NCBI RefSeq assembly: GCF_054482525.1
Contig: NZ_CM137006.1
Length of the DNA stretch: 64,000 nucleotides
Direction: 5' to 3' (one strand)
In this document: in pieces, positions 57,480 to 62,197 of the stretch
How the letters are laid out: each line of letters begins with the position of its first letter
How positions within the stretch are numbered: the first letter of the stretch is position 1
Position numbers and translations under genes: made by a program
Notes under the pieces: generated by a model
The model's database searches: none
What the model was told of the DNA's origin: nothing
The model's input: the letters and a program-made list of their open reading frames with translations, nothing else

Positions 57480-57501
57480 AAGGCGCTTCGGCGCCTTTTT
57501 A
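57480..57501 (+). terminator. Rho-independent terminator after gcvP
   Basis: AGGCGC-TTCG-GCGCCT followed by TTTTT. Confidence 0.55.
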
Positions 57502-57534: not shown

Positions 57535-57638
57535 TCCCCTCGCCCCTTTGGGGAGAGGGTTAGGGTGAGGGGAACAGGCCGGCACTGGCGCGAATATTTA
57601 CCCTCACCCCGGCCCTCTCCCCAAAGGGGCGAGGGGGA
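57535..57638. repeat. ~100-bp imperfect palindromic intergenic repeat
   Basis: CCCCTCGCCCCTTTGGGGAGAGGGTTAGGGTGAGGGG ... CCCTCACCCCGGCCCTCTCCCCAAAGGGGCGAGGGG; arms are reverse complements. Confidence 0.5.
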
Positions 57639-58527: not shown

Positions 58528-59988
<1,461 letters not shown>

Positions 59989-60005
59989 TTACAGGAAATA
60001 GTACC

Positions 60006-60317
60006 ATGCAGCCAAACGACATCACTTTTTTTCAACGTTTCCAGGATGACATTCTGGCTGGGCGTAAAACCATCACCATCCGCGACGAGTCTGAATCGCA
60101 CTTCAAAACGGGTGATGTGCTTCGTGTCGGGCGTTTTGAAGATGACGGTTATTTTTGCACGATTGAAGTCACCGCAACCTCAACCGTAACGCAGGATACA
60201 CTGACGGAAAAACATGCAGAGCAGGAAAATATGACCCTGACTGAACTGAAAAAGGTCATTGCCGACATCTATCCCGGTCAGACACAGTTTTATGTGATTG
60301 AATTTAAATGTCTTTAA
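60006..60317 (+). CDS. yqfB: ASCH-domain protein YqfB, 103 aa
   Basis: Full ORF matches K-12 YqfB. Confidence 0.85.
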
Positions 60318-60477
60318 ATTGAACTCACACCTGTTAGTTGAAATTTTTCATTTAATTTCATGATTTTTCGGAGATTAGTCCCAAATCAGAATTTATTTTA
60401 GCTAACAGGTGTTCACTGGAACTATTCTCAGTTACGCTGGAGAGGTTTACACGTGCGTGTACGTTTCTCCGGAGTAA

Positions 60478-61140
<663 letters not shown>

Positions 61141-61216
61141 TGGGTGTGCCTTTGTAGGCCTGAAAAGACACACCCTTGTCGCATCAGGCGATAAATGCAT
61201 GATGCGACACAGAGAT

Positions 61217-62197
61217 TTACTCTTCGAGTGAATACGGCAGCGGCTCGATATGCAATGTATTCGCATCGTCACGCACGCGGAAGATGCTGTCCGGTTCCAT
61301 ATCGTTATTCATGACGACCTGTACCACGACCTGACCATCTTCCAGTTTTACCGCAGCCAGCACGGTTCCGGTACGACGCCAGTTCTCGCCCATTTTCAGC
61401 TCTAAGTCTTCACCGGCTTCCGGCAGTCGGCTGGCGCTACCCGTCAGCAACCAGAGCGCGCGTTTGTTGGCACCACGGAATTTAGCTCGCGCCACCATCT
61501 CTTGTCCGGTATAGCAGCCTTTTTTAAAGCTAATGCCGCCCAGCGCCTGGAGGTTGGTCGCCTGTGGGATAAACTGCCCGCTGTTGGCGGCATCAATCAC
61601 CGGGAAACCCGCTTCAATGTTTAATGCCAGCCACTGTTGGCTATTGTTCAGTTCCGCTTCACCGCGCAGTTTATCGGTCAGCATATTGGCAGTGGCTTCA
61701 TCGGTTACGATCAGGAAACGTTCTGCCGGGTGTTCAAACCATAGCAAAGTGGTCGCGCCTTCTTTAACTACCTGTTTTTCTTTCGAAGGCAGTTCACTAA
61801 AGAGATTTGCCAGCGCGGCGCGCGCCTGAAAACCGGCAACACCAAGCAGCACACGCTCGTCGTCTGGCGCGATGGTCACTTTAGAGAACACCGCATATTT
61901 TTTCAGTTCAGTCAGCTGCGGTTCACGCACGCTGCGCCGTTCAATCCATGCAAAGCCATCGCCGTCGCGGAACAGACGTAAATTGCTCCACATTTTACCT
62001 TTGGCGTCGCAATGGGCGGCGAGCAGGTGCTGATCTTCAGTCATCTGGCTGACATCTGCTGTCACCTGGCCTTGCATATATTTTTCGCTGTCCGCGCCAG
62101 TAATAGTGGCAAGCGCCCAGTCATCAAGCGTCATCAGCGTCAGTGGCAAACGGGCAGAAGCCGTAGGCTGACGGGGAGGAAAAGGTGTAAAAGCCAT
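61217..62197 (-). CDS. ygfZ: Folate-binding tRNA-modifying protein YgfZ, 326 aa
   Basis: Full ORF; GcvT-like fold. Confidence 0.9.

Follow-up and report, generated by a model that had tools for sequence, protein, structure and literature searches.

An inverted repeat between yqfB and trhA

A perfect inverted repeat in an intergenic region may act in the RNA, as the two strands of a stem, or in the DNA, as sites for a dimeric protein, and the repeat that precedes yqfA (trhA) in a 64,000-nucleotide stretch of contig NZ_CM137006.1 (RefSeq assembly GCF_054482525.1; the whole stretch is referred to here as the window) raises the question of which of these it is. The left arm, ACACCTGTTAG on the plus strand at 60327-60337, has its exact reverse complement, CTAACAGGTGT, at 60402-60412; the 64-nt spacer (60338-60401) is 76.6% A+T, and the unit of 86 bp sits in the 163-bp interval between the yqfB stop codon (60315-60317) and the trhA ATG (60481). 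A first-pass annotation that had reported a perfect 11-bp repeat with a 64-nt AT-rich spacer is thus confirmed at these positions. The arms can be lengthened to 18 nt with two mismatches (60327-60344 and 60395-60412; 89% complementarity), and the 11-mer occurs at no place in the window besides the two arms, even when one mismatch is allowed. Eight perfect inverted repeats with arms of 11 bp or more and spacers of 3-100 nt occur in the window, against a mean of 1.3 in first-order Markov simulations of it. The repeat by itself is weak evidence; we regard it as non-random because both of its arms are conserved elements. The coordinates of the features discussed below are collected in Table 1.

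Table 1. Features of the yqfB-trhA region, in coordinates of the window.
Feature	Sequence	Position	Strand	Remarks
yqfB coding sequence		60006..60317	+	N4-acetylcytidine amidohydrolase; open reading frame and RefSeq annotation; upstream neighbour
Distal FabR-like box (predicted)	AACTCACACCTGTTAGTT	60322..60339	.	contains the left arm; strong right half-site TGTTAGyT, degenerate left half
IHF-core-consensus element (predicted)	TAATTTCATGATT (plus-strand letters)	60353..60365	-	one mismatch; conserved
Upstream flanking hexamer	TATTTT	60394..60399	+	conserved, directly upstream of the operator; putative alternative -10 or part of a -35 region
Proximal FabR operator	AGCTAACAGGTGTTCACT	60400..60417	.	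contains the right arm; published FabR box of the trhA/yqfA promoter
Downstream flanking block	TGGAACTATTCTCAGTTACG	60417..60436	+	nearly invariant; candidate -10 elements and probable start region (~60430-60436)
Shine-Dalgarno sequence of trhA	GGAG	60472..60475	+	invariant alignment columns
trhA (yqfA) coding sequence		60481..61140	+	PAQR / hemolysin-III family membrane homeostasis protein; regulated gene

The gene order is bglA (minus strand), yqfB (plus), trhA (plus) and ygfZ (minus). The segment 60250-60550 is 100% identical to that of Escherichia coli strain PCN033, and it has a match in 5,425 of 5,426 complete E. coli genomes. The perfect (11/11) form of the repeat requires an A at position 60329, which is found in just 145 of the 5,426; K-12 and 5,101 other genomes have a G there (left arm ACGCCTGTTAG), so that the DNA match is 10/11 and the RNA pair would be a G-U wobble, and the E. 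albertii left arm, ACGCCCGTTAG, has one further mismatch. The perfect match is a minority-allele accident atop a conserved architecture. We note also that the yqfB protein looks nearer to E. albertii by its amino acids, a lead that was dropped because the nucleotides of the window are closest to K-12 (96-98%). Elsewhere in the window, a terminator-like hairpin (57480-57500) is followed at 57536-57636 by a perfect 24-bp G+C-rich inverted repeat beginning CCCCTCGCCCCTTTGGGGAGAGGG, its arms 53 nt apart; it may be one of the boxC-type intergenic repeats known from E. coli.

The right arm and the FabR operator of trhA

FabR (YijC) is a TetR-family dimer with trhA, fabA and fabB as its targets, and its repression is promoted by unsaturated fatty acids. 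Membership of trhA in the FabR regulon is published (PMC9017321), and the motif shared by fabA, fabB and yqfA was predicted in 2001 by phylogenetic footprinting (PMC4804515, PMC9017321), its published core being ACAnnTGTnnnnT (PMC4804515). The right arm lies within the trhA operator: the published mutagenesis primer CAGAATTTATTTTAGCTAGTGGGTGTTCACTGGAAC covers 60387-60422 and replaces the ACA at 60405-60407, inside the arm, by GTG, and in E. coli this mutation derepresses trhA and abolishes its response to FabR and to oleate, the position of the box relative to the mapped start being consistent with repression (PMC9017321). In Salmonella, FabR occupies the yqfA promoter in vivo by ChIP (the ChIP-qPCR amplicon covers both this box and the second one described below, so that the signal is not assignable to either), and yqfA is up 2.7-fold in a fabR mutant (PMC4804515); derepression of yqfA has likewise been published for Klebsiella. 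The existing pUA-trhA fusion, with an upstream primer that begins at 60227, includes both boxes.

We compared sites with a symmetric FabR matrix derived from 32 distinct proximal boxes together with the fabA and fabB sites. The proximal box scores 24.5 bits, rank 1 in the 64-kb window, and is kept in 79 of 80 orthologous loci of the Enterobacteriaceae, Erwiniaceae and Pectobacteriaceae; it is an 18-bp imperfect palindrome that resembles AGCGTACACGTGTTAGCT, has the core ACAnnTGT(nnnnT) and agrees with ACAnnTGTnnnnT. The right arm is a member of a known operator family and is already described. The first-pass annotation had proposed that the repeat could bind a dimeric regulator or form a long-range stem in the yqfA leader, and had held that neither was documented; the former proposal is borne out for the right arm, which forms the core of the published operator and carries the published mutation, and the supposed lack of documentation was mistaken. 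Since the right arm belongs to a textbook-level FabR operator, it offers no evidence for a new riboregulator.

The operator is flanked on both sides by conserved blocks, TATTTT and TGGAAyCATTCTCAG, and probably overlaps the core promoter. Across 80 loci the consensus before the operator is atttaTTTt, and on its 3' side the block G(G/A)AA(T/C)(C/T)ATTCTCAGTTA adjoins it in 80 taxa, irrespective of how far away the ATG lies (58-139 nt). Three segments are candidate -10 elements: an extended TGnAAyyAT (60417-60425), yATTCT (60423-60428), and the upstream TATTTT. If one of the first two is used, the operator would fill the promoter spacer, as it does at fabA and fabB, and transcription would start near 60430-60436; with TATTTT, the start would fall within the operator. 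The left arm would lie some 70-100 bp upstream of any of these candidate starts and so would not overlap the core promoter, and both arms are probably upstream of the trhA transcription start. A simple scan of 59900-60700 found neither a sigma-70 consensus promoter nor an intrinsic terminator, and there is no FadR-like site with up to three mismatches in the yqfB-trhA intergenic region; by eye, the left arm lacks a FadR left half-site, and no conserved CRP, FNR or ArcA pattern is apparent. A sigma-54 reading of TGGAAC-N-TCAG was rejected, the GC of the -12 element being absent by eye.

Two further observations concern the DNA downstream of the operator. The block at 60417-60436 is more conserved than is usual for a -10 element and start region, and it might carry another signal as well, such as a further FabR contact or an RNA 5'-end element. 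In the putative trhA 5' untranslated region, ahead of the Shine-Dalgarno sequence, 60432-60477 forms an imperfect repeat with 22-nt arms (73% complementary; core TACACG-tg-CGTGTA); it was rejected as a conserved structure, there being no consensus structure in 32 taxa, and is therefore probably specific to E. coli or due to chance.

A probable second FabR box at the left arm

Read on the plus strand, the left arm is ACAccTGTtagtT and agrees with the published FabR core. When the best matrix match was sought in the 150 bp upstream of the operator at 81 loci, it fell at an offset of -75 to -78 in 39 of them, corresponding to the core Enterobacteriaceae; these comprise 31 of the 34 loci with yqfB upstream and eight loci without it. 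In the window the offset is 78 bp. The boxes at this position include AGAGAACACCTGTTAGTT in Yokenella (16.4 bits), AGAATACACTTGTTAGCT in Citrobacter gillenii (15.6 bits) and TGGTAACACGTGTTAGCT in Enterobacter wuhouensis (14.7 bits). In E. coli the distal box is weak (8.5-9.4 bits here and 3.0 bits for the K-12 allele, versus 23-27 bits for the fabA, fabB and proximal boxes). At 9.4 bits it is third among the approximately 64,000 positions of the window; the substitution at 60329 alone takes the score from 3.0 bits with G to 8.5 bits with A.

Conservation around the left arm is confined to particular columns. In an alignment of 37 taxa, in which the intergenic columns around the distal box are saturated with substitutions, five columns within it are invariant (A60327, C60328, G60333, T60334 and G60337), and the conservation islands of the arm fall on AC..TGT.aG. 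The third base of the distal ACA is a G in 14 of the 37 taxa, whereas it is invariantly A in true operators; K-12, for example, carries ACG in place of ACA. Outside the proximal operator, 60322-60339 is the segment of the intergenic region most like a profile derived from the K-12 fabA and fabB sites only (r=0.57; the known operator gives 0.67 and the runner-up 0.41), and also the one most like the profile of the proximal boxes (r=0.85). Enterobacter quasihormaechei and Superficieibacter lack yqfB and have instead a divergent RpiR-like regulator gene upstream, and both keep the distal box, which shows that it belongs to trhA control rather than to the 3' end of yqfB. The first-pass annotation would have given up its proposals if the arms were neither conserved nor co-varying in orthologous intergenic regions; conserved they are, and co-variation is absent.

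The distal box is probably a new member of the FabR operator kind, to judge from its sequence and position, and is apparently undescribed. The literature searched, from which Feng and Cronan 2011 and McCue 2001 were missing, makes no mention of a second FabR site at trhA, and such a site may already have been described or excluded in those two papers. In a separate group of eight taxa that have other genes upstream (loci L053, L064, L061, L017, L038, L044, L054 and L060), the best second match lies at -64 to -66, a spacing shorter by about 12 bp (about one helical turn) than the 77 bp of the core Enterobacteriaceae; the first three of these exceed chance expectation (shuffle p <= 0.01), and AGCTTACGGCTGTACTCA is an example.

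The IHF core consensus is WATCAAnnnnTTR, and the spacer between the two boxes contains an element that departs from it at one position (AATCAT). A match with no more than one departure is present at the same aligned place in 33 of the 37 taxa (nine of them perfect), versus 6.3% of shuffles, with A60354, T60361 and G60362 invariant and conservation centred on AA and TGAT. Exact matches to the consensus are rare in the 64-kb window (three, with 2.3 expected). The consensus is degenerate and the DNA A+T-rich, and we consider 60353-60365 to be no more than a putative IHF site. The conserved TGAT suits an IHF core better than a -10 hexamer, because position 2 of the hexamer varies by eye between A and T.

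Alternative explanations

We favor the interpretation, with a probability of roughly 0.6, that the repeat is a DNA-level pair of FabR-type operator boxes in the trhA control region, of which the distal one is likely auxiliary. Pairing of the arms in RNA, either in the trhA leader or in a transcript reading through from yqfB, with a hairpin that affects processing, stability or termination, is by comparison highly improbable. If transcribed, 60318-60420 would indeed fold with its arms paired (-30.4 kcal/mol, z = -5.4), the absence of an intrinsic terminator between yqfB and trhA in our scan makes read-through possible, and 84% of cells across the 37 taxa are able to pair; but the exact figure of 84.4% compares with 84.1 +/- 0.5% after shuffling of the 3' letters (a value as high as that observed arises in 191 of 500 shuffles), the covariation score of the arms in these taxa is 0.101 versus 0.100 in shuffles, and at the two central positions that vary, 16-17 of the 37 taxa have no pair. 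Rfam 15 returns nothing relevant in 59900-61300 at E-values up to 1. Moreover, the left arm is kept beside a divergent upstream gene, from which no read-through is possible, while the right arm is a proven protein site with a conserved core-promoter block at or after it. We therefore rejected an RNA motif in spite of the strong single-sequence fold, and with it the leader stem of the first-pass annotation; with neither covariation nor an Rfam match, the pairing potential is best seen as a by-product of two conserved palindromic protein sites. A reading of the 86-bp unit as a miniature transposable element, whole or remnant, with the arms as its terminal inverted repeats, draws on their 18-nt extent and 89% complementarity and on the A+T-rich interior, and we give it practically no credence: dispersed copies were not found, the unit being single-copy with a median of one place per genome across 5,425 genomes, the 11-mer is confined in the window to the two arms, and the right arm is present in taxa that have no left arm.

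The remaining alternatives accept the proximal operator and differ over the left arm. The main rival, which we regard as doubtful, is that this arm is conserved for some other protein or for a second upstream promoter (with, for example, the -35-like TTGAAA at 60339-60344), its likeness to a FabR site being incidental. Such a reading would accommodate the observation that the most conserved stretch, TGTTAGyTGAAA, runs past the 18-bp box, as well as the degenerate left half-site (ACA or ACG), the low matrix score in E. coli, and the fact that FabR control in K-12 is fully accounted for by the proximal box. It does not readily explain why, the operator aside, nothing in the region should match an independent fabA/fabB profile as well as the distal profile does, why several taxa have near-consensus FabR boxes at exactly the distal position (those of E. 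wuhouensis and C. gillenii, for example), or why a complete AGCTTACGGCTGTACTCA box occurs at -66 in unrelated lineages, and the scans for sigma-70 and FadR-like sites described above provide it with no candidate. It is improbable, in our estimation, that the distal box no longer functions in E. coli and persists as a neutral or decaying relic, with the perfect match a chance allele; the rarity of A60329, the further mismatch in E. albertii, and the expectation of about 1.3 perfect 11-bp inverted repeats per window by chance all point that way, but across 37 taxa the box keeps a fixed position and has five unchanging columns, amid neighbouring columns that are saturated.

A proposed role in trhA control

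The pair of FabR-type boxes offers a simple account of the repeat. Each FabR site is palindromic (core ACAnnTGT), and two copies appear to be present in the trhA control region; the good half-site of the distal copy (TGTTAGyT) is the one nearer the promoter, and that of the proximal copy (AGCTAACA) is the one nearer the distal box. The best half-sites, TGTTAG and CTAACA, would thus face each other, so that the two boxes read as an inverted repeat, and any such facing pair yields complementary arms without selection for pairing. The repeat is mostly explained by known biology, and half of the pair is already known.

The distal box would most likely be an auxiliary operator, increasing the occupancy of the promoter by FabR. 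This gain could come about through cooperative binding or through a loop assisted by bending, and a bend at the IHF-like element may bring the distal box near the promoter. The proximal box would stay indispensable; indeed, the K-12 proximal mutation alone removes all FabR dependence, and hence the distal box is unable to repress on its own. We know of no FabR dimer-dimer contacts or looping, and the centre-to-centre spacing of 77-78 bp corresponds to a non-integer 7.3-7.4 helical turns. A full three-part module of distal FabR box, IHF bend and proximal operator, in which FabR dimers 65-78 bp apart cooperate via a protein-bent loop, strikes us as unlikely. Were it to exist, it would be a repressosome-like architecture that is undescribed for FabR and unusual among TetR-family repressors, trhA would be tuned to the levels of unsaturated acyl-thioesters more tightly than fabA or fabB, and the A/G polymorphism at 60329 would shift the repression set-point among E. 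coli lineages.

The product of trhA is a bacterial PAQR homologue that links membrane energetics to the control of unsaturated fatty acids. Repression of trhA has been published to be as strong as that of fabB, and strains and studies are at odds over whether FabR regulates yqfA at all; a functional distal box would provide a testable explanation both for the strength of repression and for the conflicting reports, and the A and G alleles at 60329 constitute a natural pair with which to test it.

Comparison with known systems

The fabA box AGCGTACACGTGTTAGCT and the fabB box GGCGTACAAGTGTACGCT of K-12 share with the trhA box AGCTAACAGGTGTTCACT a common 18-bp imperfect palindrome with the core ACAnnTGT; all three respond to the same TetR-family repressor, and the fabA and fabB boxes overlap their core promoters, as the trhA box probably does. 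fabA and fabB each have one FabR box, adjoining a FadR activator site, whereas trhA has no FadR-like site and, unlike them, appears to have, 78 bp upstream, a second FabR-like box that is weaker and conserved and is separated from the first by an IHF-like element, an arrangement that would be modestly new. The GalR-HU repressosome and the O1-O3 pair of LacI are two-operator repression loops, and trhA resembles them in having two palindromes for a dimeric repressor tens of base pairs apart, a strong one at the promoter and a weak, presumably auxiliary one; it further resembles loops of the GalR-HU type in having a site for a bending protein, here predicted, between the boxes. It differs from both in that the distal site lies upstream, the two sites thus not flanking the promoter, and the likeness is accordingly one of mechanism by analogy and not of membership in the same class.
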